The notes under the pieces: model-generated
Seen by the model: the letters and a program-made list of their open reading frames with translations, nothing else
Databases searched by the model: none
Told to the model about the DNA's origin: nothing
In this document: piece after piece, positions 1,170 through 52,079 of the stretch
How positions within the stretch are numbered: position 1 is the stretch's first letter
Layout: every line of letters starts with the position of its first letter
Assembly (NCBI GenBank): GCA_965220935.1
Contig: OZ244857.1
Span: 1,672,929-1,736,928 of the forward strand
DNA length: 64,000 nucleotides
Reading direction: 5' to 3'
Origin: Rhodothermales bacterium
GTDB taxonomy: Bacteria; Bacteroidota; Rhodothermia; Rhodothermales; Bin80
Translations under genes and position numbers: made by a program

Positions 1170-1276
1170 TCACTGCACCCGCATCAAGTGCCCGACCTGC
1201 ACCGCTGATGTGCTACTTTCCAGCGAGCTGGCCATGACCCGATAGAGATAGGCCCCCGCAGGCAGGCTAACTGATC
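1170..1276 (-). other. Out-of-frame 3' tail that encodes the missing end of the T9SS C-terminal domain of the 1184..6652 gene
   Basis: In the alternative minus-strand frame this stretch reads SLPAGAYLYRVMASSLESSTSAVQVGHLMRVQ*. That aligns with the paralog's C-terminus LPSGPYLYQLRAISLEDHSSSVYVGHFISVQ*. The annotated frame instead reads LACLRGPISIGSWPARWKVAHQRCRSGT*. This implies a 1-nt indel near 1266..1276 (minus strand gatcagttagc). Confidence 0.8.
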
Positions 1277-4200
1277 CAGCGTGAGTTCATGCTCCCACCC
1301 CGCGGTCAGGCTCACCAGAGGATGGGCATAAACGCGCCGACCCGTAACATCCAGCACATCTATCTCAACTTGGGCCGGCCACGGCAGATCAAACACAATG
1401 CGTGTGGAACGGGTAAACGGATTCGGATAATTGGCATGCACGGTCAACGTCTGCGGAAGCGCGGTCTGCGCTTCTGCATGGACAGTAGACACCACCTCAA
1501 TGCTAAAGTTCAGACTATCTTCCGCGCCATGCACATCCACGGCTTTAAACGTCATCGGCGTTGGTGGGGTGACGGCTAGTGGCGTTCCACTGACGGTTCG
1601 GGTGGGGAGGTCAAACAAAAGCCCACTCGGCAGGGACAACACCGTGAATGAATAGGTGACCGGGTCTTTTCCACCGCTCACCTCTGGCAGGACGAGCATT
1701 CCAATGGGTTGCCCCCTTGGAACCACCTGATCGTCCACACGCGTTGTAAAGGACATGCGATAGACCTCAAGGCCGAAGTCTTGACGGGCCACGCTCCCAG
1801 TTGCGTCCTGCACGGCCCAAGTAAATGATGTCATCGCCGTGAGTTCTGAAGGGGTGCCACGGAGTGTGCGCTCCGAGCGCGTCAGCCCCGCGGGTAAGTC
1901 GGGTGTCAAGGTGTAGGTATAGGGCATGGTGCCATCGGTCGCCTCTGGAAGCATCACCTGAGCGATGGGCTGCCCAATCGGATAGATTTGATCGCTGATC
2001 GTGCTGCTTAGCGATAAGGCCTTGGGCGTGACATTGACCACCTCTGATGGTGTGCCCTGACCAATGGCATTAAGCGCAATCACCCGAAAATAGACAGGAG
2101 GGGGCAGATTGGTGACGGTATACGTGGTCGACGGTGTACTGGCCACCAAGACCGTCCAATCCGATTGTCCATCAGACGATGTGTCAATGCGGTAGCCCGT
2201 GATCGCAGATCCTCCGTCATCTAAGGGCGCGGTCCACGAGAGAACCAGGGTCGATGGCCCCGACGCTGTGATCGTTAACTCTGTGGGCGCATCGGGCGTT
2301 GCCAGGGCATCGGTGGTGGCACTGACGGTATTGGATGCATCGCTATTGCCAACGCTATTGATCGCACGGACTCGATAAACCTGCGTCGTACCCGCAGCGA
2401 GATTGGTGTGCGTATAGGTGGTTGCCCTGGTCGTCGCCAGCTCCGACCAAGCCCCCGCATTAGAGACTTCAATCTGATAGCCGGTGATCGTCGCACCCCC
2501 ATTATCAGAGGGGGCAGTCCACGACAGGTTGATGCTGGTTCGCCCTGCAGCTGTCGCGGTGAGCTGCGAGGGAGCATCGGGCACTGTGGCATTGGGCGTG
2601 TCGGTAGTGGCGCTACTTGTCGACGATACAGCCCCCGGTCCAACCGAATTGATCGCACGCACCCGATAGTGACGCGTCACGCCTGCCGAAAGCCCTGTGT
2701 GCGCATAGGTGGTCGTGGTGGACTGGGTATTGGCCACCAAATTGGTCCATGTGTTCGCTGTTCCCGTATTAGACACTTCAATCTGGTAGCCCGTAATCGC
2801 CGCGCCGCCGGTATTGGTAGGTGCGGTCCACGACAGGTTGATGCTGGTTCGCCCTGTAGCTGTCGCGGTGAGCTGCGTGGGCGCAGCGGGCACGGTGGCA
2901 TTGGGCGTGTCGGTGGTGGCGCTCCTTGTCGCCGATACAGCCCCCGGTCCAACCGAATTGATCGCACGCACCCGATAGTGACGCGTCACGCCTGCCGAAA
3001 GCCCTGTGTGCGCATATGTGGTCGCAGTCGTATTCGCCACCAAGTCCGACCAGTTACTGGTGCCACTGGGCGAGACCTCAATCTGATAACCCGTGATGGG
3101 CGCGCCGCCGGTATTGGTAGGTGCGGTCCACGACAGGTTGATGATGGTTTGCCCGTCTGCCGTTGCGGTCAGTCCAGTCGGCGCGCCCGGTGCTGTCGCG
3201 GCTGCGGTGGTGGCATTGGCCACATTAGAAGGCGCCCCAGAGTTAACCGAGTTGATCGCACGCACCCGGTAATGCCGCGTGGTAGTGGCACTGAGTCCTG
3301 TATGGGCGTAGGTGGTCGCAGTGGATCTCGTATTGGCCTGCTGATTGGTCCAGTTTGACGTGCCATTGGGCGAAACCTCAATCCGATAGCCAGTAATATC
3401 TGCGCCCCCCGTATTGGATGGCGCCGTCCATGAAAGATTGATGATCGTCGGGCCCGAGGCCGTGGCCGTCAATCCCGTTGGCGCATCAGGGGCTGTGGCC
3501 GTAGCAATCGTTATCGTTAGAAAAGCGGCGGCGGAGAACTGACTCTGAAGGGATTCGTTCTCGCTCTGACCAATCCAGGTGGTAACCCGATACCCATAGG
3601 TCTTACCCGCCGATACCTGAGCATCGGTATAGGTTGTCGTGGTGACATCCCGTGCGAACAGTGACCAAAAATCCCCATCATCATCAGATTTGTAAACATT
3701 ATATCCAAACGTCTGATGGCCGGAAGGAAGATCGGTCGGGGCATCCCAGGAAATTTGCGCCGCGTTGGCCGACGTCTGGCGCACCCGTACATTGGTGGCA
3801 ATGCCTGACCCAGAGGCCGAGGCGGCTGTGACCGACACTGCATCCGAAGGGGCACTATCTCCCGATGCACTGCGTGCCAGAACCCGAAAATGAAACACGC
3901 TCCCCGGCGTCAAGCGACTACTGAGAAACTCGTACCTCGTCCGAGTCAGATCGTCGTATCCAATCAACGTCTCCCAGTTGGTGCCACCATCGGTAGACCA
4001 TTCCACCTTGTATCCTGTGATCGGCGAATCACTGGGCGGACGTCCCCAGGTAAGTCTCACATCATGAAAACCTGTAGGAAAAACCTGTAAATCGGGCGGG
4101 GCACCCGGGGCTCTGACGGCGGCGGTCGTGGCACTGGCCACATTGGACGCTGCTGCACTGGTCCCCTTTGAATTTCTGGCATAGACCCGGTAATGCCGCG

Positions 4201-6652
4201 TCGTACCCGCCGTGAGCCCCGTATGGCTGTAGGTGCGCCCCGTTCCCGTGTGTGCAGGCGTAACATTGGTCCACGTGTCCGTGCCATTGGGCGAGACTTC
4301 AATCTGGTAGCCCGTAATCGGTACCCCGCCTCTATTGGTCGGGGCTTTCCAAGACAGATTGATGGTCGTTTGCCCGTCGGCCGCAGCGGTCAACTCCGTA
4401 GGAGCCGCAGGGACCGTGGCAGGGAGGGTCGTGGTATTGGCCACATTGGAGACGGCCCCCGCTCCCTGCGAATTGATCGCGCTGACCCGGTAGTACCGCC
4501 TGGTGCCGGCATCCAAGCCCCCATGGACATAGCCGGTCGTGGTGGACCCAGTATTGGCCACCAAATCATCCCAGTTAGAGGTGCCATTGGGCGAGACTTC
4601 AATCTGGTAGCCCGTAATGGCTGCGCCCCCGGTATTGGTGGGCGCGTTCCAGGATAGGCTGATCGTTTCCGGGCCTTCAGCCTCGGCCCTTAACCCCGTG
4701 GGGGCCGCGGGCGTGGTGAGGGTCGGTGCCGCCGCCGTGGTCGCATTGACGGTACCAGAACTGGTGCCCTCACCCACCGAGTTGCGGGCAAAGACCCGGT
4801 AATGTCGCGTCGTGCCTGCGCTGAGCCCCGTATGGCGGTAGGTGCGACCTGTTCCGGTGTGTGCAGGCGTAACATTCGTCCATGGCGCATTTCCGTTGGA
4901 CGACCACTGCACCCGGTAGCCCGTAATGGCCCTGCCCCCATTATCGGCCGGGAGCGTCCATCTCAGATTGATCACCGTTTGCCCGTCGGCCGTGGCGGTT
5001 ACATTCCTGGGCACACCCGGAGCTGTGGCTGCGGCGGTCGTGGCATTGGCCACATTCGAGCGATCACTAAAGCCCAGCCCCGAACTATTGGCCGCAACCA
5101 CCCGGTAATCGCGCCGCGTCCCCGCCGAAAGTCCCGTATGCGAATAGGTGGTGGCTCCCCGGACGTCGGCCAAACCGGTCCAACTAGTTCCTTGATTCGT
5201 TGACACGCCAACGCGATAATAGGTAATGGGTGAGCCGCCGTCATCTGCAGGGGCCGTCCAGTTTAGGATGATCGTGGTGCGGCCCGAAGCCGTGGCCCTC
5301 AAGTTCCTGGGGGCACTGGGGCGCGAGGCGGCCGCGGTGATGGCCGTGGCGGAACTGGATGCCGCCCCTGCTCCTTCGGAATTGATCGCGCGGACCCGGT
5401 AAAACCGCTGGGTCGATGGCGCGAGTCCGGTATGTGTCGTGTCCGTTTTGGTGGTTTTGGTGTCAGTGACGAGAGTGCTGAAGCTGGTTTCGGATCGCAG
5501 CCTTGACTCAATCCGGTAGCCCGTGATGGCCGCGCCGCCGTTGTCGGTGGGGGCCGTCCATGTTAACTTGATCTTCGTCCGACCATCGGCGGTGGCCGTT
5601 AATCCCGTCGGAGCGGCGGGGGCGGTCAGGGCGGCGGTGGTAGGTTGAACCAATTTAAACGAATCATCACTACCAATGGCATTAATGGGTTGTACACTAA
5701 TGGTATATTTCGTGGATGCCATAAGCCCAGTGACCGTGTAACTTCTAACTGTTGGTTCAACATCAACGAAAGTTTCAGTACTAAAATCCTCGCCAACAAG
5801 AACGCGTACCCTGTACCCCGTGATCGGCGAGCCTCCCGTTTCTGTGGGTGGAGTCCACGAAATGTCAATGGTGGAAGGCCCCGTAACCGTCGCTGTAAGT
5901 GTCGCAGGTGAACCAGGGCGGGTGGCGCGACTAGTGGTGGGTTGAACAAATTTAAACGAACCATCACTACCAATGGCATTATTGGGTCGTACACTAATGG
6001 TATATTTCGTAGATGCCAGTAGCCCAGTGATCGTATAGCTTCTAACTGTTGGTTCAACATCAACGAAAGTTTCAGTTGTAAAATCCTCGCCAACAAAAAC
6101 GCGTACCCTGTACCCCGTGATCGGACTCCCCCCATCATCGCCGGGTGTCCATGAAACAGTAATCATGGAAGGGCTGTCAACTTTTGCTGTCAGTGTAGAT
6201 GGTGGACCAGGGCGGGTTCGCCCGTTGGTCGTTCCAGAGACGACATCGGACCAGGGACCATCCCCGTCGGCATCCCTACTTCGGATCCGGATATGGCGCG
6301 TGGTGCCTGGCGAGAGGCCAGTGAAAAGCGTTTCCGTTAGTCCGCCTGAAACCGTGCGAAGATCCTTCCAGTCTGAGGTTCCATCCGACGACCACTCAAT
6401 CTCATGCCCTGTGATGGCTTTATTCCCATTCGGGTTGGCCGTCCAGGAAATGGAAAGGGTCTCGCGTGCATTGCGCCCGGTTTGATAGGGTGCAACGGTC
6501 ACGCCTGTGGGTTTTCCGGGCGGGCGTTGGCCTGCCGTCGTCTCATGGAAGCGTTCTTGATCCGTGTCAGAAAGCGGAGTCGACTTTGAAGAAAGTAGGG
6601 CGTCGCCTGCAATCTTATTCTCACCGTCACGCTCTGATGCACTCAGCTGCAC
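1184..6652 (-). CDS. Giant fibronectin type III repeat surface protein with a T9SS C-terminal sorting domain. This is the central ORF; both the N-terminal signal peptide and the end of the CTD are out of frame.
   Basis: 1822-aa ORF. About 15 FN3 modules are recognisable from the recurring motif P..LTA.A.G.T.I.LSWTAP...GG..ITGY(Q/R)IEVS...HTGL..G..R.YRV.A.N. Two Ig/cadherin-like modules follow (MPYTYTLTPDLPAGL...GTPSE and VTYSFTVLSLPSGLLFD...SGTP). The sequence NYPNPFTRSTRIVFDLPWPAQVEIDVLDVTGRRV is a Por/T9SS CTD. The ORF starts at a GTG and has no signal peptide of its own. Confidence 0.9.
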   Translation of the reverse strand: MQLSASERDGENKIAGDALLSSKSTPLSDTDQERFHETTAGQRPPGKPTGVTVAPYQTGRNARETLSISWTANPNGNKAITGHEIEWSSDGTSDWKDLRTVSGGLTETLFTGLSPGTTRHIRIRSRDADGDGPWSDVVSGTTNGRTRPGPPSTLTAKVDSPSMITVSWTPGDDGGSPITGYRVRVFVGEDFTTETFVDVEPTVRSYTITGLLASTKYTISVRPNNAIGSDGSFKFVQPTTSRATRPGSPATLTATVTGPSTIDISWTPPTETGGSPITGYRVRVLVGEDFSTETFVDVEPTVRSYTVTGLMASTKYTISVQPINAIGSDDSFKLVQPTTAALTAPAAPTGLTATADGRTKIKLTWTAPTDNGGAAITGYRIESRLRSETSFSTLVTDTKTTKTDTTHTGLAPSTQRFYRVRAINSEGAGAASSSATAITAAASRPSAPRNLRATASGRTTIILNWTAPADDGGSPITYYRVGVSTNQGTSWTGLADVRGATTYSHTGLSAGTRRDYRVVAANSSGLGFSDRSNVANATTAAATAPGVPRNVTATADGQTVINLRWTLPADNGGRAITGYRVQWSSNGNAPWTNVTPAHTGTGRTYRHTGLSAGTTRHYRVFARNSVGEGTSSGTVNATTAAAPTLTTPAAPTGLRAEAEGPETISLSWNAPTNTGGAAITGYQIEVSPNGTSNWDDLVANTGSTTTGYVHGGLDAGTRRYYRVSAINSQGAGAVSNVANTTTLPATVPAAPTELTAAADGQTTINLSWKAPTNRGGVPITGYQIEVSPNGTDTWTNVTPAHTGTGRTYSHTGLTAGTTRHYRVYARNSKGTSAAASNVASATTAAVRAPGAPPDLQVFPTGFHDVRLTWGRPPSDSPITGYKVEWSTDGGTNWETLIGYDDLTRTRYEFLSSRLTPGSVFHFRVLARSASGDSAPSDAVSVTAASASGSGIATNVRVRQTSANAAQISWDAPTDLPSGHQTFGYNVYKSDDDGDFWSLFARDVTTTTYTDAQVSAGKTYGYRVTTWIGQSENESLQSQFSAAAFLTITIATATAPDAPTGLTATASGPTIINLSWTAPSNTGGADITGYRIEVSPNGTSNWTNQQANTRSTATTYAHTGLSATTTRHYRVRAINSVNSGAPSNVANATTAAATAPGAPTGLTATADGQTIINLSWTAPTNTGGAPITGYQIEVSPSGTSNWSDLVANTTATTYAHTGLSAGVTRHYRVRAINSVGPGAVSATRSATTDTPNATVPAAPTQLTATATGRTSINLSWTAPTNTGGAAITGYQIEVSNTGTANTWTNLVANTQSTTTTYAHTGLSAGVTRHYRVRAINSVGPGAVSSTSSATTDTPNATVPDAPSQLTATAAGRTSINLSWTAPSDNGGATITGYQIEVSNAGAWSELATTRATTYTHTNLAAGTTQVYRVRAINSVGNSDASNTVSATTDALATPDAPTELTITASGPSTLVLSWTAPLDDGGSAITGYRIDTSSDGQSDWTVLVASTPSTTYTVTNLPPPVYFRVIALNAIGQGTPSEVVNVTPKALSLSSTISDQIYPIGQPIAQVMLPEATDGTMPYTYTLTPDLPAGLTRSERTLRGTPSELTAMTSFTWAVQDATGSVARQDFGLEVYRMSFTTRVDDQVVPRGQPIGMLVLPEVSGGKDPVTYSFTVLSLPSGLLFDLPTRTVSGTPLAVTPPTPMTFKAVDVHGAEDSLNFSIEVVSTVHAEAQTALPQTLTVHANYPNPFTRSTRIVFDLPWPAQVEIDVLDVTGRRVYAHPLVSLTAGWEHELTLDQLACLRGPISIGSWPARWKVAHQRCRSGT
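2460..3160. repeat. Near-identical tandem DNA repeats with a 309-nt period (one FN3 module each) inside the giant gene
   Basis: The string caaccgaattgatcgcacgcacccgatagtgacgcgtcacgcctgccgaaagccctgtgtgcgcata occurs at 2641 and again at 2950, an offset of 309 nt or 103 codons. The flanking sequence is also nearly identical. Confidence 0.9.
5643..6236. repeat. Two tandem copies, about 297 nt each, of a low-G+C FN3 module
   Basis: Units start near 5643 and 5940 (ggttgaac(c/a)aatttaaacgaa(t/c)catcactaccaatggcatta...). They encode ...SPITGYRVRV(L/F)VGEDF(S/T)TETFVDVEPTVRSYT(V/I)TGL.ASTKYTISV... They are visibly AT-richer than the rest of the gene. Confidence 0.9.
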
Positions 6653-20729: not shown

Positions 20730-20879
20730 CAAGGTAAAATGATTTATACTAAAGACTGAAGATTGTCTTACTCAAACATAAATCATAGGTTTAACTAAGA
20801 GCATGAAATGCTATCGTATAGTCTGAATATTCGGGACTATTGTTACTTGACTTCCCAGTCAAATTCAATACACCTGATG

Positions 20880-23516
20880 TTAACTGGAATCTAAAATTTC
20901 AAAAAATGCTTCCTTAAACTCCTCCTTATTATGCCCCATTTGATTGAAAAAGGGCAATCCGCGCACAATGTACTCTTCTACCTGAAACACTTCTTGAACT
21001 TTATCAGTCCATTGTATATTCGCCATAAAATCTTGTTTCCATAAATCATTGGATATGAGATGTTCTCCTTTGGGCTCAATAAATAACTGGAGAATATTTC
21101 CAACTTCTTCACCTTTTTTCCGAAGAAATAAGATAAAGTCAGGCTCAAATCCCTCCCCATTTTCAAAAGAGTAAAGTTTTACGGCCTTTTCATTTCTCAG
21201 AAGAAAAAAATCATCATATCGTTTTTTGAGGTTTTCGGCCTCGTAATACAAATACTCAATGAAGCGCTTTTCCTCGCTTGTTCCATAACTCGTATCATAA
21301 GCGTGCCAATCTTCATCAATTGGATTAATAAGGTTTAGGTTCGGTAAATTGCTCTCCTTCCAGCTAAGCCCTTTTTCACCTTGAATTTTAATTTTCAGTG
21401 TCTTATCAACAAAGCACTGGCTGATTTTCTTACGCGTGAACTCAGTTGTTCCGACGAATTCTGCCCTACGACGCTTCAAACTAATCTCAATTTGATTAAG
21501 GGCATATTGTACAATTTTAACACTCTGACGAGCAGTTATTCGTTCAAGATCTTCACGATTTCCTCGAACCTGAATATTCACATTTCTTAGGAATAATTCC
21601 GAAGTTTGAAACTCTAGTGTACTTCGGAGGTGTGGAAAATATCTTTGTAGGTTAACGAAGTGAAAAAAATCATTGGAGTCCATGGCAAAATCCAAAATAG
21701 ATCTGTCAAATTCTGATACATTCAAGTTTTTAGAAACCACTGTAGAATTATTGCCACATTGACTTCCCCCTTCGTCATTGTGATTAAAGGCTGATATTTC
21801 GGTGACTTGTCCTGTCATCAGAGTGTGTGGAAATACAAAGTTTGTTTCTATTTCGTAGGATCTCAATTGGCCAATACTTTCAGGTAAGAACTTGCTTCTC
21901 CGATCATTGACCCACACATAACCGATCTTATAAAACTGTGATTGCTTAAAACTGTCTTTCAGACGTAGATGTACTGTACGGCTTTTTTCATCATGCATTC
22001 CGATTTTTTTAAGTGCTCGCTTAAGCTCATCAATGTATCTTGGATTATGGGAGCAGTGATAATGTAGCTCCTCCAAAATTCTTAGATTGTGTTCTATATT
22101 TCTATCGTACTTACGCTTTTCTGGTGTGGCTTCTGGTAAATCGGGATCCATAAACGGGAAATATCTGGCACCCCGCCCTATGAGTTGCGCCTCTGACATA
22201 GTTGTTGCGCCAATCCTTTCGCCTCTACTATCTCTAGTATTATATAGGCGCACAATGTCAAATAAATTTAGAACGTCCCATCCCTCATCCAACTTATTGA
22301 CTGCAAAAATTACTCGAAGATCATTAGATTTGTCTTCCAGATTGTTTAAGTCTATCTGAAGATCCTCAAGATCTATAAGTCTGTTTACATTTGCGGTCTT
22401 CCCGTCTCCAAAATCCCCTTTTAACTCAAGTGCAAAATCATCAAATTCTATTCCGCATTCGTCAATGATATATTCAAAAGCTCCTGATAAGGTCATGTCG
22501 TTCACTGATGAATTACGAATTTGTCTAAGATTATCACCAGACAATCCATTGACCATGGATACAAATAAAGTCTCATTTTCGGCCGATTGGGCAATAGTTT
22601 TGGACTTCATTAGAATCACAGGCTTACAAAATATTCCATGTGCTTCTGCTACTTTTCGCCTGTATTGACTTAACACCATGGCTTGTAGCATTCGATCATG
22701 CGGAGTTAAATCGGCCTGCCTTAATTCAATATCTTTTGAATATCCATCCGCCCTAAAATGCTTTAATTGGTAATCATAAATGACCTTGTCGTAATACTTT
22801 ATCTTAATTTCACTGTGATTGAGATCAGCAGTAGCAGTAAACTCCAATAGAATATTTTTAGAGTGTTGATCAAAAATAGATGTGACGGTATTTTCCCAGC
22901 TTTTGAGCCCAGTAACCTCGGTAGATGTTAAATTGTTTCTTGTGTGTGCATTTAGATGGTGAGCCTCATCCGAGATCATAACTATTTGGTGTTCCTGAAA
23001 ATCTTCCATTGTTACAGCATCTTCTCTGGGATTGAGCATTCTTGTGTGTAACCCTTGAATTGTAGTAAAATGAATATTGATCGTTTGAAGATTCGCTGCC
23101 TCAAAGGTATCAACTGCTTGAACTTCCACTTGCTTACCATCAATGCGTATGTTCTGACTGAATAAATATTTCAGCGATTGTGAGTTAAGAAAATTATCTC
23201 TGGTTTTTTCAATTATCTGATTTGAGTTTACAAAAAACAGGAAATTCCTATAGCCCCGACGATAAAGATCAAGTATTAAAGCAGCCATCAATACTGTTTT
23301 ACCGCTTCCTGTTGCCATGTGAAACAGCAAATGAGGTCTTGGTGATCTGTGGTTATACTTATCAATGTAGTAAAACCACCGTTCAATTGCTTCAACTTGA
23401 TAAGGACGAAGATTAATTCTTTGGGCAAGATTGTCAGTGATATTGGATGGTAAGTCTTTTTTTAAGATATCCTGCTCTGACAATGTGTCAAATGTTTCAA
23501 GAAGACTCCGTTTCAT
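20880..23516 (-). CDS. res: Type III restriction enzyme Res subunit (SF2 helicase + PD-(D/E)xK nuclease)
   Basis: 878 aa with motif I FHMATGSGKT, motif II MISDEAHHL and motif VI QLIGRGARY. The C-terminal nuclease-like segment is GFEPDFILF...LQLFIEPKGEHL. The start overlaps the upstream mod stop (ATGA at 23513..23516). Confidence 0.85.
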   Translation of the reverse strand: MKRSLLETFDTLSEQDILKKDLPSNITDNLAQRINLRPYQVEAIERWFYYIDKYNHRSPRPHLLFHMATGSGKTVLMAALILDLYRRGYRNFLFFVNSNQIIEKTRDNFLNSQSLKYLFSQNIRIDGKQVEVQAVDTFEAANLQTINIHFTTIQGLHTRMLNPREDAVTMEDFQEHQIVMISDEAHHLNAHTRNNLTSTEVTGLKSWENTVTSIFDQHSKNILLEFTATADLNHSEIKIKYYDKVIYDYQLKHFRADGYSKDIELRQADLTPHDRMLQAMVLSQYRRKVAEAHGIFCKPVILMKSKTIAQSAENETLFVSMVNGLSGDNLRQIRNSSVNDMTLSGAFEYIIDECGIEFDDFALELKGDFGDGKTANVNRLIDLEDLQIDLNNLEDKSNDLRVIFAVNKLDEGWDVLNLFDIVRLYNTRDSRGERIGATTMSEAQLIGRGARYFPFMDPDLPEATPEKRKYDRNIEHNLRILEELHYHCSHNPRYIDELKRALKKIGMHDEKSRTVHLRLKDSFKQSQFYKIGYVWVNDRRSKFLPESIGQLRSYEIETNFVFPHTLMTGQVTEISAFNHNDEGGSQCGNNSTVVSKNLNVSEFDRSILDFAMDSNDFFHFVNLQRYFPHLRSTLEFQTSELFLRNVNIQVRGNREDLERITARQSVKIVQYALNQIEISLKRRRAEFVGTTEFTRKKISQCFVDKTLKIKIQGEKGLSWKESNLPNLNLINPIDEDWHAYDTSYGTSEEKRFIEYLYYEAENLKKRYDDFFLLRNEKAVKLYSFENGEGFEPDFILFLRKKGEEVGNILQLFIEPKGEHLISNDLWKQDFMANIQWTDKVQEVFQVEEYIVRGLPFFNQMGHNKEEFKEAFFEILDSS

Positions 23517-24782
23517 AGATCTATTTTGTAGAATTTTCTGGTAATTTCTACATTTTCATCAGAGATTGAAAACCACTCATCGCCGAGTGAATGGATGTTA
23601 ACATATAAATGATTGGCATCCATACAATCTTTCAGCGCTCGCTTCGCATCATCCATGGAAAGATTCGTAAATTTTTCTGATGCAAAAGATTTCATATTGA
23701 CATCATAGCGAAGAAAACCAGTCTTTTGTATTTCGTTTTTGATGCAAAGTAGAGTTTTGAAGTCAGTAGCTGCGTCAATTTTCTCCATAAATTGTGAGTT
23801 AGAGTCTGCAAGTTGAGCATAAATAAATGAACCACCTCCTGCCCAGTCAACTACCTTAGAAACTCCACCCTGTTCGCCTTCAATGACCTTTTTTAGGCGG
23901 ATCTTGATTAAGTCATCAACATAGTTCATCTGTTCAATTGCAATCCATTGACGCCCCATCTTGTGAGCAACTGCTGGCGTGGTGCCTGACCCTGCAAAGA
24001 AATCCATCACAATATCATTCGGATTTGTTGATGCGCGGATGATTAGTTCTGCAAAGGCTTCTGGCTTTGGATAGGCAAAATCCACTTTCCCAAATATCTT
24101 ATTTCGTTCTTTGGTTGCTTTCTGATTCATGTATTGATTATCTGCACCTTCAAGGCTTCCAAGTAAATTATATTCGCTTTTGATTTCACTTAAATAGCGC
24201 TTAAAAATAAAGCCTCTCTGATTTTCAGAATGCTTTTTTCTAAATTTGATTTTTCCAGATTTAATGTAATCTCGAAGTCTCCCTCCCGAAAATAGCCACT
24301 GGCGATTTTCGGGAGGGAGATCAACTTTCCCTGTATATGGGTTCTTAATTGGAAAATAATAATCACCCGACCGAGCACTTGGATTATCACTTGCCCATGG
24401 TCCATTGGGATCATTGTCGGGGTTCTTGTAATTCTCAAATGTCTTTTTTTTACCAACTAATTCAATCTTGGACTTATCCTTTGCATAGATGAGTGTATTT
24501 TCGTGCTGAATATTAAATCCAGTTCTCGCATCATTAGTTGTTGACTTTGTCTTCCTTATTAAATCTCCCACGAAGTTCTCTCTTCTGAATATCTCATCCA
24601 TCAACACTTTGAGATAGGCCTGTTCATTATCGTCAATATGGATAACTATCAACCCATCATCTGTAAGAAACTGTTTGGCCACTTCAAGTCGATTACGCAT
24701 GAACGTGAGCCACGAACTGTGATTGAATCTGTCATTATATCTGAACCCATCATTCCCCGTATTGTAAGGGGGATCAATGTAA

Positions 24783-25391
24783 ATCAATTTCACTTTCCCC
24801 GCATAGCGAGTTTTCAGTGAATGGAGAGCTAAGAGATTATTACCCTTAATCAGCAAATTGTCATCTTCACGCACCTCACCTACTGCACTGGAAAATGCCC
24901 CCCCCCCCCCCCCATTTTTTCTGGATTGACACTCCAGCGCTCCCATCCTGTCAACACCTTTGGCTCAAACAATCTTGTAATGTCATCTGGAGACAACACA
25001 GTGTTCCAGAATATCTCTTTTCTCCCCCGATCTTCCTTTGTCATACCACCCTCCAAAACACAGTCCTTGTAAGGCCATGTAAGGACTACATCGCGTGACT
25101 GACTTAAATGATTCCCTCGCCCATCTACCAGACCAATACGATTTTTGAATGCCGTGTAACTGTTTGGGAGAAAGGTCTTGTTTGACACAAAACTTTGGAA
25201 TTTCACCTTGTCAAAAACCAGGGTTTTACCAACTTTGACAAAAAAGTGTGATTTGATTTTTTCGGATTGAAGTAGCAGTTCAAGAAGCCTTTTATCCAAA
25301 CGCAAGGCCGCTTCAATGACAACATTTCGGAGAATCTCTCCATCAGAAATATACTCAGACTCAGACTCTAATAACTTGATTAAATCGTTAA
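24783..25391. repeat. Direct repeat copy A: 5' module of mod copy 1 (609 nt including C16)
   Basis: By-eye alignment to 26830..27433 shows no differences apart from homopolymer length. The encoded N-terminal ~175 aa are identical in the two ORF translations. Confidence 0.85.
24898..24913. repeat. C16 homopolymer (G16 on the mod coding strand)
   Basis: Counted directly: ...gaaaatg ccc / cccccccccc / ccc atttttt. Tracts of G11, G14 or G17 would be in frame; G16 is not. Confidence 0.95.
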
Positions 25392-25562
25392 AGAGATTTT
25401 GCATGTTTGATGCTTATGACCGTGATTGTTCGGTTTGAAAGTTTATAAATTGATAGATCAATTAATGTTACCGTTAAATAGTATTCCAAATAAGACATAC
25501 GGGAGATCATCTCAAAGTCAAACCCTCAAAACCAGAAATATACGAACTTCTAAGTATAATCA

Positions 25563-27488
25563 TTACGAAATGCCGTAAAATTTACGAGTCAATTCTGCAT
25601 CTTCTTTGGAAATTGTATGCACTTCATCGCCGAGCGAGTTGAGGTTTACATATAGATTATTGGTATCCAAGCAATCCATCAACAAACGCTTTGCATCATC
25701 CAGAGGAATATTGAAGAAATCATTATCATCAAATGGTTCCAAGTTAACATCATATCTGAGAAAACCTGTTGCTTGAATTTGATTCTTTATCGCATAGAGT
25801 TTTGAAATATCAGTAGCGATAGAAATTTGATCTACAAAAACCGAATTTGAATCCGCAAGCTCTGCATAAATAAATGATCCACCTCCAGTCCATCCGATAG
25901 TTTTTGATATTCCACCTTGCTCACCTTCAATCACCCTCTTCATTCGTTCAATCGTAGTATTTTGGATATAATCCATTTGTTCAATTCCAATGAATCTCCG
26001 TTTCATTTTATGTGCGGTGCTAATAGTGGTACCGCTTCCTAAATGATAATCTAGCACAATATCTCCTTCATCGGTTGACAGTTGTATAATTCTTTCCATT
26101 AACCCCTCTGGTTTAGGATTAGCAAATACTTTTTGCCCAAATAACTGTTTAAGGTGTTGTGTGCCATTTGTAGTTGTTTGTAAATCTCTCCACAAGGTAG
26201 TTGTAACTTCCCCTCGTGATTTCGCTTCAGACCAAAATCTTTTTCTCTGAGGACCGGCTTCGCCAGAAATACCAAATACAATCCGACCATCAGCGAGTAA
26301 TTCATCAAAAACTTTTTTTTCATTTTTCCAACTATTTCCTTTATTGGGCTTATATACCACTCCTGTATGTGGATTAGTAATTTCATATAACTGATTAGGT
26401 CTTTTTCCCCCAACCTGGAAGGGATCTGCCACCCATTTGCCTCTTGCATCATTATCTGGATTTGAAAATTTACTTTCATCACTGGGGAGTCTAAACTGAG
26501 TTCTATTTTTCTTCAACTGTTTTATATCCTTTGAGTACAATAACAAATGAGTATGTGCATTGGAAATTAAAGCTGTATTGGTCACTGACTTTGTGGAATT
26601 CCATATGACATCAGCTACAAAATTATCTCTTCCAAAAATTTCATCCATCAATATTTTACAATAGTGCGCCTCTTCATCAGACAGTGAAATCCAGAATAAA
26701 CCATCCTTAGATAATAATTCTCTTGCCGCTTCCAAACGATTTCGCATAAACGTCAGCCATGTTGAATGCCTGAATCGGTCGTTATACTGGAAACCGTCAT
26801 TTCCTGTATTGTAAGGGGGGTCAATAAAGATCAATTTCACTTTCCCCGCATAGCGAGTTTTCAGTGAATGGAGAGCTAAGAGATTATTACCCTTAATCAG
26901 CAAATTGTCATCTTCACGCACCTCACCTACTGCACTGGAAAATGCCCCCCCCCCCATTTTTTCTGGATTGACACTCCAGCGCTCCCATCCTGTCAACACC
27001 TTTGGCTCAAACAATCTTGTAATGTCATCTGGAGACAACACAGTGTTCCAGAATATCTCTTTTCTCCCCCGATCTTCCTTTGTCATACCACCCTCCAAAA
27101 CACAGTCCTTGTAAGGCCATGTAAGGACTACATCGCGTGACTGACTTAAATGATTCCCTCGCCCATCTACCAGACCAATACGATTTTTGAATGCCGTGTA
27201 ACTGTTTGGGAGAAAGGTCTTGTTTGACACAAAACTTTGGAATTTCACCTTGTCAAAAACCAGGGTTTTACCAACTTTGACAAAAAAGTGTGATTTGATT
27301 TTTTCGGATTGAAGTAGCAGTTCAAGAAGCCTTTTATCCAAACGCAAGGCCGCTTCAATGACAACATTTCGGAGAATCTCTCCATCAGAAATATACTCAG
27401 ACTCAGACTCTAATAACTTGATTAAATCGTTAAGGATATTTTGTTGATTTCCTGAATAATCCTGATTTCTGTTCATGATTGATGCCAT
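25563..27488 (-). CDS. mod: Type III DNA methyltransferase Mod (copy 2, intact, N6-adenine beta-class order IV-TRD-I)
   Basis: 641 aa with IFIDPPYNTGNDGF (motif IV), a central region divergent from copy 1 (candidate target-recognition domain), and VLDYHLGSGTT (motif I). The poly-G tract encodes GGG in frame. Confidence 0.9.
   Translation of the reverse strand: MASIMNRNQDYSGNQQNILNDLIKLLESESEYISDGEILRNVVIEAALRLDKRLLELLLQSEKIKSHFFVKVGKTLVFDKVKFQSFVSNKTFLPNSYTAFKNRIGLVDGRGNHLSQSRDVVLTWPYKDCVLEGGMTKEDRGRKEIFWNTVLSPDDITRLFEPKVLTGWERWSVNPEKMGGGAFSSAVGEVREDDNLLIKGNNLLALHSLKTRYAGKVKLIFIDPPYNTGNDGFQYNDRFRHSTWLTFMRNRLEAARELLSKDGLFWISLSDEEAHYCKILMDEIFGRDNFVADVIWNSTKSVTNTALISNAHTHLLLYSKDIKQLKKNRTQFRLPSDESKFSNPDNDARGKWVADPFQVGGKRPNQLYEITNPHTGVVYKPNKGNSWKNEKKVFDELLADGRIVFGISGEAGPQRKRFWSEAKSRGEVTTTLWRDLQTTTNGTQHLKQLFGQKVFANPKPEGLMERIIQLSTDEGDIVLDYHLGSGTTISTAHKMKRRFIGIEQMDYIQNTTIERMKRVIEGEQGGISKTIGWTGGGSFIYAELADSNSVFVDQISIATDISKLYAIKNQIQATGFLRYDVNLEPFDDNDFFNIPLDDAKRLLMDCLDTNNLYVNLNSLGDEVHTISKEDAELTRKFYGIS
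26830..27433. repeat. Direct repeat copy B: 5' module of mod copy 2 (604 nt including C11)
   Basis: See 24783..25391. The copies are offset by about 2.04 kb in the same orientation. Confidence 0.85.
26945..26955. repeat. C11 homopolymer (G11 on the mod coding strand), in frame
   Basis: Counted directly: aatg cccccc / ccccc atttt. Confidence 0.95.
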
Positions 27489-27618
27489 TCTAACTTACAA
27501 TTGATCTGTTATTAATGTATCGGGGCCGGTCACCTTTTATTGGCACACAGTACGGTCCCATTCTATTTTCAACTAATATACTCAGATATCATGTTGCAAG
27601 ACCATGCTGAGGCAAAAT

Positions 27619-28848
27619 CTATTCATGGGGGGACGGTTTGGCCCAGATGGTTAAAACCAACTCCTCACCATATAAATTATACACGGGGGTTTGACCTGAA
27701 TGACTTTTGCATATGCTTAATATAGTCCTAACTCCCTCACCACGAGATTCAAGGATCACTTTACCAGTAGATGAGGCTTTTATTCGTGATAAAAAATTGA
27801 CCAATAGCTGATTTCTAGTGAATACGCGATACGCCATTAGCTCAATGGTAATTGCATTGGGTAAGTCACCAGGGCTATAAATCTCAATCCGGTCTGAAAA
27901 TAAAAACATCCGAATCTTAGATCCACGGATTGAGTAATCTCTGTGCGCCACAGCATTGACGATTGCCTCACGAATTGCGCGGAGGTCATACTGAGGATAC
28001 TCAATTCGTCCAGCAGGCTTACGAGCAGGTTTCAGCATAAATCGATCTACAAACTTAATCGCACTCTCAATCTGAGTATCCACAGTGCTCTCAATACGCT
28101 CACTATGGACTAAGTCATCCGAAGTAAATTGAATACTTTTATACACGGCTGCTTCAATATATGCGTTCTGCATGTAGTTCTGAGGTGACGTACCGAATAT
28201 CAAAAGTCCTGTAACAGTTGTGCGAAATAAATCATCATCAATTCTTGAAATTACTTTGGTGTTTCTTAGTAAATCAACCCATGAAAGAGTCTTGGAGTGC
28301 CCTCCAAAATAAGATTCTAATTTACTTTGATCAAGATCATCTATTGTGGTACCTGGAACTAATTGTTCATCAAAAATAAATGTGCGCTCCCTTTCTTGGT
28401 ATAGCCGGGGAAGCATAGGCCCTTTGAGCAATTGTTTAGTTGATCCAACGCGCACATAATGACGACCACTGCTGGTAATATGAACATATAATCCTTTTGG
28501 AATTTTGACTAATAAAATTGTAGCATTTTCACCGTTCGGCATGGGAAGATACTCCCACTGGAGTGAGGGATTTAATGGCGGATCGCAGCTATTTGTAGCT
28601 ACATTGATGATCCAGTGCTCAATATCCTTGAGACGATCTTTCGGAAACCCTCTAACAATTCCATCGTCATCTACCCCTAGGAAGATCGTACCTCCGTTAG
28701 AATTGGCAAAAGCAACCATTTCCGAAGCAATTGCATCCTCGTTTGGTGATCGCACGCCATGCTTTGCCATAACTACTTGTTTAAATTCAGAGTGAGAACC
28801 CTCTCCAAGAGATAACTGCTTAAAAATTTGATTTGTTGTGTAGTGCAT
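27619..28848 (-). CDS. AlbA_2 (Schlafen-like) DNA-binding domain + HATPase_c_4-like ATP-binding protein (COG2865-type putative regulator)
   Basis: 409 aa. The N-terminal SEFKQ...EMVAFANSNGGTIFLGVDDDGIVRGF is the AlbA_2 signature. The C-terminal IREAIVNAVAHRDYSIRGSKIRMFLFSDRIEIYSPGDLP...TRNQLL is the RecG-C-terminal-like HATPase_c_4 signature. Confidence 0.7.
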   Translation of the reverse strand: MHYTTNQIFKQLSLGEGSHSEFKQVVMAKHGVRSPNEDAIASEMVAFANSNGGTIFLGVDDDGIVRGFPKDRLKDIEHWIINVATNSCDPPLNPSLQWEYLPMPNGENATILLVKIPKGLYVHITSSGRHYVRVGSTKQLLKGPMLPRLYQERERTFIFDEQLVPGTTIDDLDQSKLESYFGGHSKTLSWVDLLRNTKVISRIDDDLFRTTVTGLLIFGTSPQNYMQNAYIEAAVYKSIQFTSDDLVHSERIESTVDTQIESAIKFVDRFMLKPARKPAGRIEYPQYDLRAIREAIVNAVAHRDYSIRGSKIRMFLFSDRIEIYSPGDLPNAITIELMAYRVFTRNQLLVNFLSRIKASSTGKVILESRGEGVRTILSICKSHSGQTPVYNLYGEELVLTIWAKPSPHE

Positions 28849-28854
28849 AGTTTT

Positions 28855-31839
28855 CTAAAATCCGTATCGTTTCCTCCGAAGACGAAATGCTTCTTCGCTA
28901 CCTTCTATGATGGCTGCAACAAGTTCCTTTATTTGTGATTTGTCAATACTTCCTGCACCCATCACTTTCCCTACTTTATTATCTGAACCCAATGCAACGA
29001 TGAGTTCAGCATCTCCATTCACTGGAACATTAGCATTATGGGTGGCAATTAGAATTTGGCGCTTGAATTTTTGTTGACGTAGAAGATCAACGATGATGTT
29101 GTAAACATATTGATTGTCAAGATCATCTTCTGGCTGGTCAATGAATATGGGTTGATTTCGTGCCGAAAGTAAAAGACTGATGATGGCCGTGTTCTTCTCA
29201 CCTACCGATCCAGTTTCAATTGTCTTAAACGTTCCATCCTTCGCGCGAACCTGCGCATGAACTAAATCCTCTGGCAAATAAGACTCCATTTCGTCTATTC
29301 TTGCATGGTCAAATTTTAGCAGTGCATTGAAAAAATATTTGGTGAGTGCTGTCTCCCCAACAAGAGACGCAACCTGTGAATCATCTGCAACTGTAGATTT
29401 GCCTTTATCTTTTGATGAGTTGATGTCTGTTCTAAGTGCTTGAAGAAGTGTTCTTAGGTTATATGGCACTTCGCTATCAGCAGAGAAGACATAATCACAT
29501 AAGACAAGCCAGTCACATTCTTGAAGTCCAGTGCCCCCAAACCATTAATCTCGTCTATTTTCAAAATCATTCCGATCACGAAAAGCATGAATCTGGATGC
29601 GAACATCTGCATCAATATCTTCAAGAGCATGAGCAATTTTCATACGGGCATTGTATCGATCGTGATGAATCAGTTGCAGTTCAATCTGAACATTCTTAAT
29701 TTTTTCTTCCACCTGGTTTAATTCGTCTTCAATATTTTTGATTGAACCCTTTTCATGTTCTAATCTTGCACGTTCTTGAAGGAGTTTTTCGTGATTAATT
29801 AAGTGTCCCTCTATATTCTCCGTTTCTTTAATTAGAGCATTGTATTCTAATTTGATTTCGTCGTAGTTCGGTTTCCAGTTTTCTAATTGCTCTGAACGAA
29901 TTTTTTCACTCAGTATCTTAATGGCCTTGACCTGATCATTAAGTGCTAGAAGTATCTTATCTCGGGTACTACGAATCTGATCTGTAATTGATTGTGACCA
30001 GAGTTCCTTCGGGGATGATTCAAGCTTTTCTTCACCTAAGTCCTCAACAGGTTCAATTGAACTCAATAAAATATTACTAACATTATTTATCTCTCTTAAT
30101 TGATCATCTATCCACCTACGTTCTTGCTCCACTTCATTGAAACGAGTAAATACCTGCTTATGCTTCTCTTTTTCAAAGAATGCAATCTTGTCTTGAACTT
30201 TCTGTAACGCAGTTAACACCGCGGGTGCGTTATTTTTTGATTCAACCAAACTGGTACGTAATGATTGACATTTACGAAGTGCAGAGGTAAGCCTTTTTTT
30301 ATCCTCATTGAAGTTGCGACGAGCACTGCTGTCCATTAATGAGTCAATCTCTCTACGCTGGGACACTGGATCATGGGCAATCTCAGCAATCTGTCGCTGA
30401 GATAAAATTCGAGGTGCAATCAAAGTTCGAACATCTAATGGAACTGATTCAGAATTATCTTTGTCTGAATGAAGTGTAGTGTTAATTCTATTTGAACATC
30501 TGATGACGCGATATATCCTTCCAGCTATTACAATTTCTACAATGATTTGATAGTCAGTAATCAGAGTTCCTCTGCTTTGACCAAAATCTTGTTGACTCTT
30601 CATTGAGAGAATAGATCGGATAGAATCATATACATGGCTATTCCTGTCCGATAGGTCAGCATCCCGATCACGGTCTAATACATGCCGTAAATACTCAATT
30701 ACGGTAGATTTTCCACTCCCACGCCCACCTATAGTGTTGTGAGGCAGGGACTAAGTGGAATTGTAATTTCTTCAAAGAAGTCTGTATTACGGATTATAAT
30801 TTGTTTAATGTATGGATAATCTGACCTTGGGGGGCCATGATCCATGCGGCGAAGACGTGACTCTGGATCAAGTAGAGCTATAGAATTCCTTCAACATCAG
30901 GAACCTCCATTTTAAGCCACGAAAATCGCGAGCCGATACACTCGTATTTCCTCGGATCTGAGCACTCAATTAAAGACCAATGTTTCTGATTCCGATAGCG
31001 TTGTTGTTCATCAGTCGAGAGATTCTTCCAATCATATCCTCGACGGGCCACATCCCATTGAAGTAGTAAATCTTGAAACCCCTCTGGCAATTCAAAGAAT
31101 GATTTGGATGTCTGAAACCCATCCCAATCCTTTCGTGCGATTGCATATTGTCTCAAATGGCCTTTCATTTGATCAATTATATCTCCAGTATTCTTAGAAC
31201 GTAGACCCGTTTCTTTAGCGACTCCCCGGTTGCTATCGGCATGAGCAGGAAGTAGAACTAATTGCATGTCACGTTCACCCGATTCTGGACGACAGTACTC
31301 AAACAAGCGGTCTATAAATGTGCTAATTGATTCGCCATTTGTCAACGGAATACCGGTTTGAGGATGGAAGCGTTCTTTATTTCCAAACATATGCCGGATT
31401 GTACTATTGATATTCTCAGTAGACGTTTCTGATGAGAATATCACTAAAAAATGAATAGGACGCTCCCCACCAATACTAAATTCAACCCTGGAAGAATCAC
31501 GGGTATATGAAACCCTTGATTTAGTAATTTCTCAGATAGTTGATCAAAATGAGGTTTTAGATAACTATACCCGTCAATACTATTATGATCGGTGATGGCT
31601 ACGAGGTCTAATCCTTTCCCATTTGCTCCGTTTTGACAGGCATTTATGAATTTTGACGCGATCTTGTATAGATCCTGTGACTTACTTTTCTTAAAATTTT
31701 CAATCGCCAGTTTCGTATTTTCACCAAATTTTTTCTCATGATCAAATGGAGTATGCACATGTAAGTCACAACGGAGCCATTGGGCGCCTTGACCAATATT
31801 ATTTTTAGGTTCCGATGTTGACATTCCAATAAAATTCAC
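28855..31839 (-). pseudogene. Decayed gene for a ~990-aa PHP-domain + SMC/RecF-like ABC ATPase (candidate single-protein defence ATPase)
   Basis: Pieces identified: PHP N-terminus WLRCDLHVHTPFDHE...LVAITDHNSIDGY...VILPG|VEFSIGGERPIHFLVIF; LLDPESRLR...; Walker A IGGRGSGKSTVIEYL (read by hand at ~30690..30735); a coiled-coil segment 29545..30603; and a C-terminal Walker B/H-loop PIFIDQPEDDLD...ILIATHNANVP. Lesions: frameshifts near 31485..31492, 30880..30890 and 30740..30760, plus an in-frame TAA at 29545..29547. Confidence 0.75.
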
Positions 31840-40448: not shown

Positions 40449-40735
40449 GATTTAATTAGCTCATTAAACTGAATACCCCTATCAGGTGGGTCACTGATTT
40501 TGAGCATTTGCTCAGGGCAGTCATGCACAGAGGTACCTTGAGGCTTGAATGTTGGATGTTTTCTTGAACGAATGCTTTTTACACTGACATACCTTTGTTG
40601 ATAAACACTTTCGTCAAGAAATGCGTGCTGTCCGAAGAAAATTTGACCGATTGAACGACAGTAATCAACAAAACACTTTGATCCTTTAAGCTGCTGTATG
40701 ATCTGAAACGATTTGCCATGTTTACCGTGTTTCAT
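40433..40735 (-). pseudogene. Remnant ORF whose 3' end runs into the ISL3 right end (possible PD-(D/E)xK-like fragment)
   Basis: The last ~5 codons and the stop lie inside the IS terminal repeat. The frame is open upstream to ~40845 without an ATG (..GRALIISSEGSHRNWIIYIEMKHGKHGKS..). No secure family assignment. Confidence 0.25.
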
Positions 40736-51964: not shown

Positions 51965-52079
51965 ATTTTAAGTAGTTGATTGTGAAACACCTTGCTGTTG
52001 GTTGTCTACAAATCTGGATAAAAGCACCAGTGCGTAGTTGTAGTTTTTTACTGGGTTTTGATAGATGATTTCTCAAAAT

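Follow-up and report, generated by a model that had tools for sequence, protein, structure and literature searches.

A tandem pair of Type III mod genes with poly-G tracts and one res in a Rhodothermales bacterium: a probable phase-variable restriction-modification locus

[quoted passage not shown] The cluster of M. bovis PG45, Mbo45ORF167P (Mbo45V), has the order mod3-mod2-mod1-res, i.e. three mod genes bearing simple repeats (SSR) and one res. These co-oriented paralogues are ~70% identical overall and have conserved 5' and 3' ends, different recognition domains (TRDs) and an SSR (dinucleotide AG/GA) at a matching site. The res-proximal mod overlaps the start of res, and a mod is out of frame in the reference sequence. 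In M. agalactiae 5632, two tandem poly(GA) mod genes (MAGa1570/MAGa1580, or M1/M2.Mag5632ORF1570P; ~65% identity) carry their SSR near the 5' end and are followed by one res. The frameshifted copy differs by strain; methylation of GAAG follows the frame of one copy, and one Mod has no assigned motif.

Other SSR-switched mod genes are organized differently. modH, modJ and modL of Helicobacter pylori and modU of Campylobacter upsaliensis carry a G[n] tract within the ORF and have multiple TRD alleles, but are located at separate loci, with their own res or none, and not in tandem with one res. modA of Haemophilus influenzae and Neisseria is the prototype of the phasevarion, in which a switch of Mod alters methylation of the genome and the expression of a gene set. 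It also combines an allele-defining, hypervariable TRD in the centre with 5' and 3' regions that are conserved, and has an SSR that acts as an ON/OFF switch, but there is one allele per genome, the repeat is a tetranucleotide and an effect on a regulon has been demonstrated. Work on multi-allelic Type III methylases switched by SSRs has dealt almost wholly with small-genome host-adapted pathogens, and many environmental species showed just one non-diversified phase-variable mod gene in a 2018 REBASE survey.

The window analysed here, a stretch of 64,000 nucleotides from contig OZ244857.1 of a Rhodothermales bacterium, carries a cluster of the mycoplasma kind. An earlier note on this DNA had described an intact mod2 of 641 aa, a split mod1 and res, in this order on the minus strand, and all the coordinates and lengths hold. 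With its co-oriented mod paralogues, matching SSR site and single res, the locus belongs with the multi-mod/single-res clusters. It differs from that of M. bovis PG45 by its repeat (a G homopolymer), by the number of copies (two instead of three), by the 100%-identical 5' block shared by its pair and by the organism that carries it, as M. bovis is a pathogen adapted to its host, with a genome of about 1 Mb, whereas the window organism is uncultured and Rhodothermales-like, with its products recorded on a contig of about 4 Mb. Methylome and fragment-length data exist for M. agalactiae, and a regulon effect comparable to that of modA is a conjecture here. The features of the locus and its neighbourhood are as follows.

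28855..31839, minus strand: TrlF/Ppl-family AAA ATPase, split into four consecutive ORFs
27619..28848, minus strand: upstream neighbour, Schlafen/AlbA_2 + HATPase_c_4 protein, in a defence-island context
25563..27488, minus strand: mod2, the upstream of the two copies ('a'), coding for a Type III Mod of 641 aa, in frame at G11, TRD class A (ORF, Pfam, PDB matches)
26830..27433, minus strand: shared 5' module, mod2 copy, identical to the mod1 copy save for tract length
26956..26962, minus strand: A6-T run abutting the G tract of mod2 on its 5' side, with which it forms a composite A6-T-Gn motif
26945..26955, minus strand: poly-G tract of mod2, G11 here and G13 in a second assembly, coding for Gly loop residues ~177-180
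26169..26591, minus strand: approximate TRD of mod2 (aa ~300-440), class A
25405..25562, minus strand: spacer of 158 nt from the mod2 stop to the mod1 start, outside the repeat
23513..25404, minus strand: mod1, the copy next to res ('b'), coding for a Type III Mod, with a frameshift at G16, TRD class B
24783..25391, minus strand: shared 5' module, mod1 copy
24914..24920, minus strand: A6-T run directly 5' of the mod1 G tract
24898..24913, minus strand: poly-G tract of mod1, G16 here and G17 in the second assembly
24880..24882, minus strand: stop codon that ends mod1 prematurely at G16
24110..24538, minus strand: approximate TRD of mod1, class B
20880..23516, minus strand: res, 878 aa, intact

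Both Mods harbor IDPPYNTG (motif IV) before ..GSGTT.. (FxGxG, motif I), with the TRD in between, and match PF12564 and PF01555 as well as three Mods of the PDB (EcoP15I Mod 4zcf, Mod 6k0w and Mbo45V 7dsu). Motif order, Pfam domains and PDB matches identify them as predicted beta-class N6-adenine methyltransferases. They resemble the Mod of Mbo45V in the methylase core only, with E values of 4e-19 and 9e-25. Res matches PF04851 (ResIII, E=3.5e-32), and the GSGKT and DEAH motifs found in the alignment indicate an N-terminal SF2 helicase/ATPase domain; an identical Res protein has precomputed assignments to HI_1054 families. Its C-terminal part, which has no profile or PDB match, includes, near the C-terminus, a candidate 'EPDF...IEPKG' motif for the PD-(D/E)xK endonuclease domain of Type III Res, which was picked by eye only and is conserved in a related genome (L003). 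Comparison of Res with PDB sequences gave no match at 1e-5, and no Type III-specific NCBIfam model scored above its cut-off for Mod or Res. The order of EcoP1I/EcoP15I-type systems, mod being upstream of res and usually overlapping it, holds here: mod1 and res share 4 nt at the junction of stop and start (ATGA, 23513-23516), likewise in two relatives (L003 and L004). Systems of this type have an asymmetric site with hemimethylation, and their cleavage depends on ATP and on two sites in inverse orientation. A scan of 20500-29000 for sigma-70-type promoters and terminators gave fewer matches than in shuffles.

The two mod genes share an identical block of 593 nt (478 nt 5' and 115 nt 3' of the tract) and diverge beyond it. 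This module begins within the coding region, and the start codon and promoter are not common to mod1 and mod2. Because the block is identical in both genes, the matching position of the two tracts is no independent coincidence. In contrast, the TRD regions of mod1 and mod2 are 25% identical. The class A TRD of mod2 is 76-79% identical to those of the res-proximal copies of L003 and L004, and the class B TRD of mod1 is strongly similar to the Mod 6k0w and 81-85% identical to those of L003_a, L004_a, L027_b, L039_b, L045 and L048. Judging from these comparisons, mod1 and mod2 are of the allelic type, with conserved 5' and 3' ends and differing central TRDs.

Both tracts, ~2 kb apart, are embedded in the same context (..NPEKM-Gn-AFSSAVGEV..) and read as C-runs of 11 and 16 on the plus strand. 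In the G16 phase, mod1 runs into a stop at 24880-24882 and is split into an N-terminal fragment of 174 aa (24880..25404, minus strand) and an open downstream frame of 477 aa (23513..24946, minus strand), and G17 gives an intact protein of 630 aa. The in-frame lengths are 2 mod 3 (11, 14, 17), and the G17 thereby predicted for mod1 is the one present in the second assembly. G11 and G16 both pass the threshold of at least 9 for phase-variable mononucleotide tracts (Atack et al. 2018), and tract-length variation predicted to give ON and OFF frames, as in the criterion of the same authors, is found for both genes. Runs of at least 11 G occur at four loci in the window and in 0 of 100 dinucleotide-preserving shuffles. 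The AF2 model places the Gly tract in a low-confidence loop joining two strands, and this region varies in length between homologues.

These data suggest, with a probability of about three in four, that the locus is a chromosomal Type III R-M system with two independently phase-variable Mod specificities and one shared Res; the tandem mod-mod-res feature is real and probably functional. The A6-T-Gn tract would be hypermutable, within a stretch coding for a short Gly loop that links the N-terminal domain to the methyltransferase core. The tract length would change by slipped-strand mispairing during replication, presumably in a reversible way. A length of 2 mod 3 would give a full-length Mod and any other a truncation after ~174-183 aa. 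As the two tracts would vary independently, a clonal population would comprise cells that make Mod2 alone, Mod1 alone, both Mods or none. The TRDs being unrelated, these states would differ in the asymmetric site that is m6A-methylated and, as we propose from the intact state of res and its coupling to mod1, also in the foreign DNA that is restricted. The model supposes that Mod and Res are active and that Res serves both Mods; gene expression might also be affected.

The OFF states are possibly leaky: leakiness is reported for mod1 of M. bovis, in which frameshift suppression, including at an upstream A5T motif, was described in E. coli. If 'OFF' alleles yielded some functional Mod by RNA-polymerase or ribosome slippage on A6-T-G11-17, or by restart at the in-frame ATG 24946, the level of expression would be tuned by tract length. 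This graded control, which modifies the model above and does not replace it, is possible although unlikely. The A6-T run adjoins the G tract in both mod genes, and with G16 the downstream frame of mod1 begins at an ATG 33 nt ahead of the tract and stays open. However, the A-run may be just a second mutable run, as it is A6 in L048 and A7 in L045. In favour of the main model, and indicative of selection at the DNA level, the A5-7-T-Gn motif is conserved, yet it is translated in three different frames, and homologues from Rhodobacterales have an unrelated sequence at the tract site.

For the same organism, a second assembly is public (ENA, ERZ25072152, contig of 1.80 Mb, the products of the window being recorded on a contig of 4.08 Mb). 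It matches ~63 kb of the window, the two mod tracts being the sole differences; apart from these, it is identical over window positions 1-20670, 10880-33513 and 35371-56411. It carries mod2 with G13 (OFF) and mod1 with G17 (ON), which is the opposite state to that of the window (G11/G16); the ON/OFF assignment of mod1 and mod2 depends on the assembly. Long G runs are error-prone on all sequencing platforms, and the name of the second contig suggests a coverage of 11x, so that homopolymer consensus errors could explain the difference. The tracts would then be fixed in frame (e.g. G11, G17) and both Mods would be constitutive, without any switching. This would be in line with one gene being in frame per assembly and with in-frame G11 (mod2) and G17 (mod1) both being seen. 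However, the mod2 tracts differ by 2 nt rather than by a single one, the window's C11 and C12 tracts have the same length in both assemblies, no other indel is found in ~63 kb, and out-of-frame G9 or G10 recurs in independent short-read assemblies of L003, L004, L045 and L048. An assembly artefact is therefore improbable. A chimera of two strain alleles assembled in tandem was also considered and was rejected, as the 3' ends and the 158-nt spacer are unique and the layout is the same in the two separate assemblies and in relatives, including complete MAG chromosomes.

The comparison of tract lengths in related genomes, which the earlier note had put forward as a check, shows that the layout is kept and that the G tract is kept in most. 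The mod-mod-res layout is also present in six related genomes (L003, L004/L007, L027, L039, L002/L047 and L082), four of which carry G tracts at the matching place in the linker. In a set of relatives that takes in short-read assemblies, these linker tracts are G10/G10 in L003, G9/G10 in L004, G10/G12 in L039 and G9 in L027_b, L006, L037, L045 and L048, and the lengths at this site range overall from G9 to G17. Five of the 15 linker tracts are in frame, about one-third being expected under random phase. The clade has four TRD classes, with N and C regions that are 57-100% identical and TRDs that are 10-32% identical between classes. The two tracts had been claimed to give up to four epigenetic states: three of them (ON/OFF, OFF/ON and OFF/OFF) are observed across the assemblies and relatives, whereas ON/ON, with both copies in frame, was found in none of the genomes compared.

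This distribution of states also bears on an obligate partnership, in which a heterodimer of Mod1 and Mod2, one recognizing and the other methylating, would work as an AND gate and not as two alternative specificities. For the M. agalactiae pair, this possibility was brought up by the authors of that study; the Type III Mod dimer does comprise one recognizing and one methylating subunit, and identical N-terminal modules could favour mixed dimers. Nevertheless, we give it little credence, as each Mod has complete catalytic motifs and its own TRD, a single mod is associated with res on long contigs of L006, L037 and L044, both copies are ON in no genome and Mbo45V functions as Mod2Res1 with a single Mod species. 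It is very improbable that one duplicated mod is a pseudogene being lost, the G tract being merely its break site: although 10 of the 15 linker tracts are out of frame and the defence island also has a clearly degraded gene (TrlF-like, broken in four places), the disrupted copy is not the same in the two assemblies of one organism, OFF copies have no lesion besides the tract over ~1.9 kb (every copy, ON or OFF, is open over ~172-180 aa upstream and ~460 aa downstream of it), the tract is kept across lineages whose N-modules are 71-81% identical, though synonymous GGN changes would erase it, and a contracted tract is exemplified by L027_a (G4), whose copy is in frame. The divergent TRDs, the reversed state of the second assembly, the conservation in relatives and the intact OFF copies together support the earlier claim of two mod alleles with different TRDs, each switched by its own G tract and both with one Res.

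Within each genome, the ends of the tandem mod genes are homogenized. Gene conversion or recombination between the tandem copies would keep these ends near-identical, and TRD cassettes would be swapped over evolutionary time. TRD classes are common to several genomes at 76-85% identity, and the A/B order is reversed in the window compared with L003 and L004. Furuta and Kobayashi (2012; PMC3467074) describe TRD 'domain movement' among Type III mod genes within a genome of H. pylori, via flanking similar sequences; the swap of classes A and B would be comparable, but the partners are adjacent paralogues in the window and their flanks are homogenized to 100% identity. A more far-reaching proposal, which is tentative and rather doubtful, is that the mod genes form one integrated switch. 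Conversion-kept 100%-identical 5' modules would copy tract length, and hence ON/OFF state, and TRD cassettes between positions, and slippage together with recombination would diversify methylome and restriction, as part of a genome-wide contingency-locus strategy that would include poly-C-switched giant adhesins in a non-pathogenic, possibly host-associated marine bacterium.

The earlier note did not know of tandem alleles with a common switch module as a standard arrangement. M. bovis PG45 and M. agalactiae 5632 are precedents, and the layout itself, being already published for mycoplasmas, does not support a claim of novelty. A test for common descent with the mycoplasma clusters was negative (core-only similarity, another repeat type and single-copy nearest homologues). 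The window layout thus most likely arose independently, its likeness to the mycoplasma clusters lying in the way it would work and not in descent. Single-copy genes, from Rhodobacterales among others, are the closest Mod homologues; a protein-based scan of the 80 closest JGI metagenome loci found no tandem mod locus (0/80) and a G8 run near the linker site in only one, and the DNA pattern TGGGARCGCTGG-N(10-20)-AAAAAATG8 had no match in JGI metagenome contigs. What is new here is the uncultured, non-pathogen lineage, the composite A6-T-Gn tract in a loop-coding linker, the homogenization of gene ends within each genome and, in nearby genes for giant surface proteins, two more putative poly-C switches. 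Uncultured Rhodothermales-type genomes carry a diversified tandem system with at least four TRD classes and an intact res, and the genome of the window also has the putative homopolymer switches in surface-protein genes. If switching is true, bet-hedging by epigenetic and defence heterogeneity would extend to environmental or symbiotic Bacteroidota-related bacteria, and both 'pseudogene' calls in MAGs and binning by methylation motifs would hinge on the tract length that the assembler wrote.

Concerning the neighbourhood, the TrlF/Ppl-family ATPase gene is, unlike the mod genes, a true decayed defence gene. A tRNA is the sole Rfam match in the whole window. The C11 and C12 tracts elsewhere in the window are located at 6679-6689 and 51863-51874.

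On the minus strand, the locus encodes two Type III Mod proteins (PF12564 and PF01555), which correspond to the first ORF below and to the second and third ORFs joined across a frameshift. Both match the solved Type III Mod structures 6k0w, EcoP15I 4zcf and Mbo45V 7dsu. The two mod genes are separated by a spacer of 158 nt of unique sequence, and the start of res overlaps the mod1 stop by 4 nt.

Genes and tracts of the locus
25563..27488, minus strand: mod2 ORF, 641 aa (ORF call; PF12564 and PF01555)
26945-26955, minus strand: mod2 tract, G11 (context ..NPEKM-Gn-AFSSAVGEV..)
24880..25404, minus strand: mod1 N-terminal ORF, 174 aa (ORF call)
24898-24913, minus strand: mod1 tract, G16 (context ..NPEKM-Gn-AFSSAVGEV..)
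23513..24946, minus strand: mod1 downstream ORF, 477 aa (ORF call)
20880..23516, minus strand: res ORF, 878 aa (ResIII-family protein)

With G16, mod1 runs into a stop at 24880-24882; in-frame tract lengths are 11, 14 or 17. ORFs, tract positions and stop were rechecked, and the earlier note, which had described these genes, tracts and frames from the sequence, was right in all details. The window has four loci with a run of at least 11 G, whereas no such run arises in 100 shuffles.

The two mod genes share a block that is 100% identical over 478 nt 5' of the tract and 115 nt 3' of it (26830-27433 in mod2, 24783-25391 in mod1). As this block starts within the coding region, the start codons and the upstream DNA are not common to both genes. 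Outside the block, identity drops to 45-70%, and the central recognition domains (TRDs), already said to differ, are only 25% identical at the protein level. In an AlphaFold model, the glycines encoded by the tract lie in a short loop of low confidence flanked by two strands, and this region differs in length among homologues; three, four or five glycines would therefore be tolerable.

An exact look-up of the Res protein retrieved a second assembly (1.80-Mb ENA contig ERZ25072152, ctg52284_11x_l) that equals the window across 10880-33513, save for both mod tracts. Its mod2 carries G13 and is split into 183 + 452 aa, whereas its mod1 is intact (630 aa) and carries G17, one of the lengths predicted to restore it. 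Comparison with 1-20670 and 35371-56411 gave 0 mismatches and 0 gaps, the C11 and C12 tracts of the window included. The window's own products (637-aa mod2 and 174-aa mod1 fragment) are on record on another contig of 4.08 Mb. Thus, the organism has two separate assemblies that differ solely by the two mod tracts and show opposite ON/OFF states (frame intact or shifted). These differences may come from heterogeneous reads or from consensus noise; the 2-nt difference of the mod2 tract and the stability of the window's other tracts of similar length speak against simple noise.

Among full-length homologues, the closest ones (70-73% identity) share the mod-mod-res layout (loci L003, L004/L007, labelled Rhodothermales, and L002/L047). 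L003 is syntenic with the window, the locus being followed by release-factor and nadB genes (release factor 84% and Res 66% identical). When each GTDB species was represented by a single genome, five tandem loci turned up among the top 80 matches, including three from Rhodothermales MAGs; none was found among the best 80 JGI metagenome loci. The comparison of tract lengths in relatives proposed in the earlier note shows that lengths and frames vary at the same position within mod (the linker site).

Tracts at the linker site (a, upstream copy; b, res-proximal copy)
Window: a, G11 ON; b, G16 OFF
Second assembly (L001): a, G13 OFF; b, G17 ON
L003: a, G10 OFF; b, G10 ON
L004: a, G9 OFF; b, G10 ON
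L039: a, G10 OFF; b, G12 OFF
L027: a, no tract (G4); b, G9 OFF
L006: one copy, G9 ON
L037: one copy, G9 OFF
L045 and L048: one copy each, G9 OFF; sequence ends just past mod, second copy possible

L002/L047 (OY764222.1) instead has G8 near codon 22 (7984-7991 and 9923-9930), identical and out of frame in both copies, which is an independent tract elsewhere in the shared module. This locus (41% G+C) belongs to a MAG labelled Paracoccaceae, and the gene caller began both mod genes at an internal Met past the tract. Further long homopolymers (G15, C16; L049, OZ244855.1, 5208-5222, and L162, 2611-2626) lie in genes flanking unrelated loci with homologous mod genes.

Linker tracts are in frame in 5 of 15 cases, close to the third that random phase would give; the A run varies between close relatives (A6 versus A7), and the L027_a tract has contracted to G4. 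All copies, ON or OFF, are otherwise open across about 172-180 + 460 codons, in contrast to the TrlF-family ATPase gene just upstream, which is split among four ORFs. Within the clade, the DNA motif A5-7-T-Gn persists, yet it is read in three different frames, and the sequence of Rhodobacterales homologues at the linker site is unrelated. Taken as a whole, these data speak for selection that keeps the tract mutable rather than for pseudogene decay.

On the best-supported reading, each Mod would be turned ON or OFF independently by slipped-strand mispairing at its tract, and the locus would have as many as four states of methylation and restriction, all served by one Res. Three states (ON/OFF, OFF/ON and OFF/OFF) are seen across assemblies and relatives. 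One Res probably serves both Mods, since their N-terminal 213 residues are identical, different mod alleles elsewhere pair with conserved res genes, and a Mod2Res1 architecture is known for Mbo45V. With mod1 OFF, res probably loses its translational coupling, so this state may, conjecturally, favour methylation without restriction. OFF states may also be leaky, as frameshift suppression, with an A5T motif as one of its sites, was reported for M. bovis mod1, and the window tract directly adjoins an A6-T run.

Recognition-domain classes are common to several genomes, and the positions of classes A and B are swapped between the window and L003/L004.

Recognition-domain classes (protein identity)
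A: window mod2, L003_b, L004_b (76-79%)
B: window mod1, L003_a, L004_a, L027_b, L039_b, L045, L048 (81-85%)
C: L006, L039_a
D: L037

The mod gene ends are more alike within than between genomes (5' end: window 100%, L002 100%, L039 94-100%; 3' end: L003 100%). Such homogenised ends bear the mark of recombination or gene conversion acting on the tandem pair, together with TRD cassette exchange. The class B TRD of window mod1 (~24110-24538) is strongly similar to the 6k0w Mod (domain E 4e-84, 253 aa, recognition region included); if the recognition sequence of that enzyme is known, it would suggest a Mod1 site that can be tested.

The tandem layout, which the earlier note did not know as standard, is already known. 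In M. bovis PG45, three mod alleles lie together, each with GA/AG repeats in the same place, and there is a single res, which mod1 overlaps; in M. agalactiae 5632, two tandem poly(GA) mod genes share one res and methylation follows the reading frame; a similar cluster is cited in M. pulmonis. H. pylori and C. upsaliensis also have Type III mod genes with a G tract. The locus in the window operates as these systems do but is not orthologous to them, as likeness to Mbo45V is restricted to the methylase core and its closest relatives are single-copy genes that lack tracts. The observation is confirmed and its interpretation supported; four features are new, namely the lineage, a homopolymer tract of composite make-up, a perfectly homogenised 5' module and the presence of further homopolymer switches alongside. 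Its main value is to show tandem, diversified and phase-variable Type III systems in genomes that are uncultured and not those of pathogens, and to warn that the tract lengths written in MAG assemblies are unreliable.

All four long G/C runs of the window lie within classic contingency-type genes, namely the two mod genes and two FN3 surface-protein genes. A C11 run (6679-6689, coding minus strand; same in the second assembly) lies just past a signal-peptide-like start (MLILNTLLCVSFMAHGSVVSA...LPPPPIFF*) and puts it out of frame with a downstream 1822-aa FN3-repeat surface protein (ORF 1184..6652, minus), which looks like a phase-OFF contingency gene. At the equivalent position of its paralogue, a 1507-aa FN3/He_PIG surface protein (ORF 47441..51964, minus) ending in the same conserved C-terminal segment, a C12 run (51863-51874) encodes PPPP (..SSILPPPPIFSGD..) in frame (ON).

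Directly upstream of mod2 lies a 409-aa Schlafen/AlbA_2 and HATPase_c_4 protein (27619-28848, minus), and beyond it a TrlF/Ppl-family AAA-like (anti-phage) ATPase (28855-31839, minus), whose consecutive ORFs of 131, 188, 352 and 204 aa cover profile positions 2-84, 95-259, 376-728 and 786-944, and which is a decayed defence gene beside the R-M locus. With these two, the region resembles a small defence island inserted beside the release-factor and nadB genes. An ISL3-family element is present in two copies about 98% identical (52076-53471 and 39066-40453). The copy examined (52092-53340) has its transposase split into ORFs of 235 + 185 aa (profile 3-202 and 203-369), with a T9 run (53342-53350) just upstream of the first; the other copy is likewise called as two short ORFs in the second assembly.
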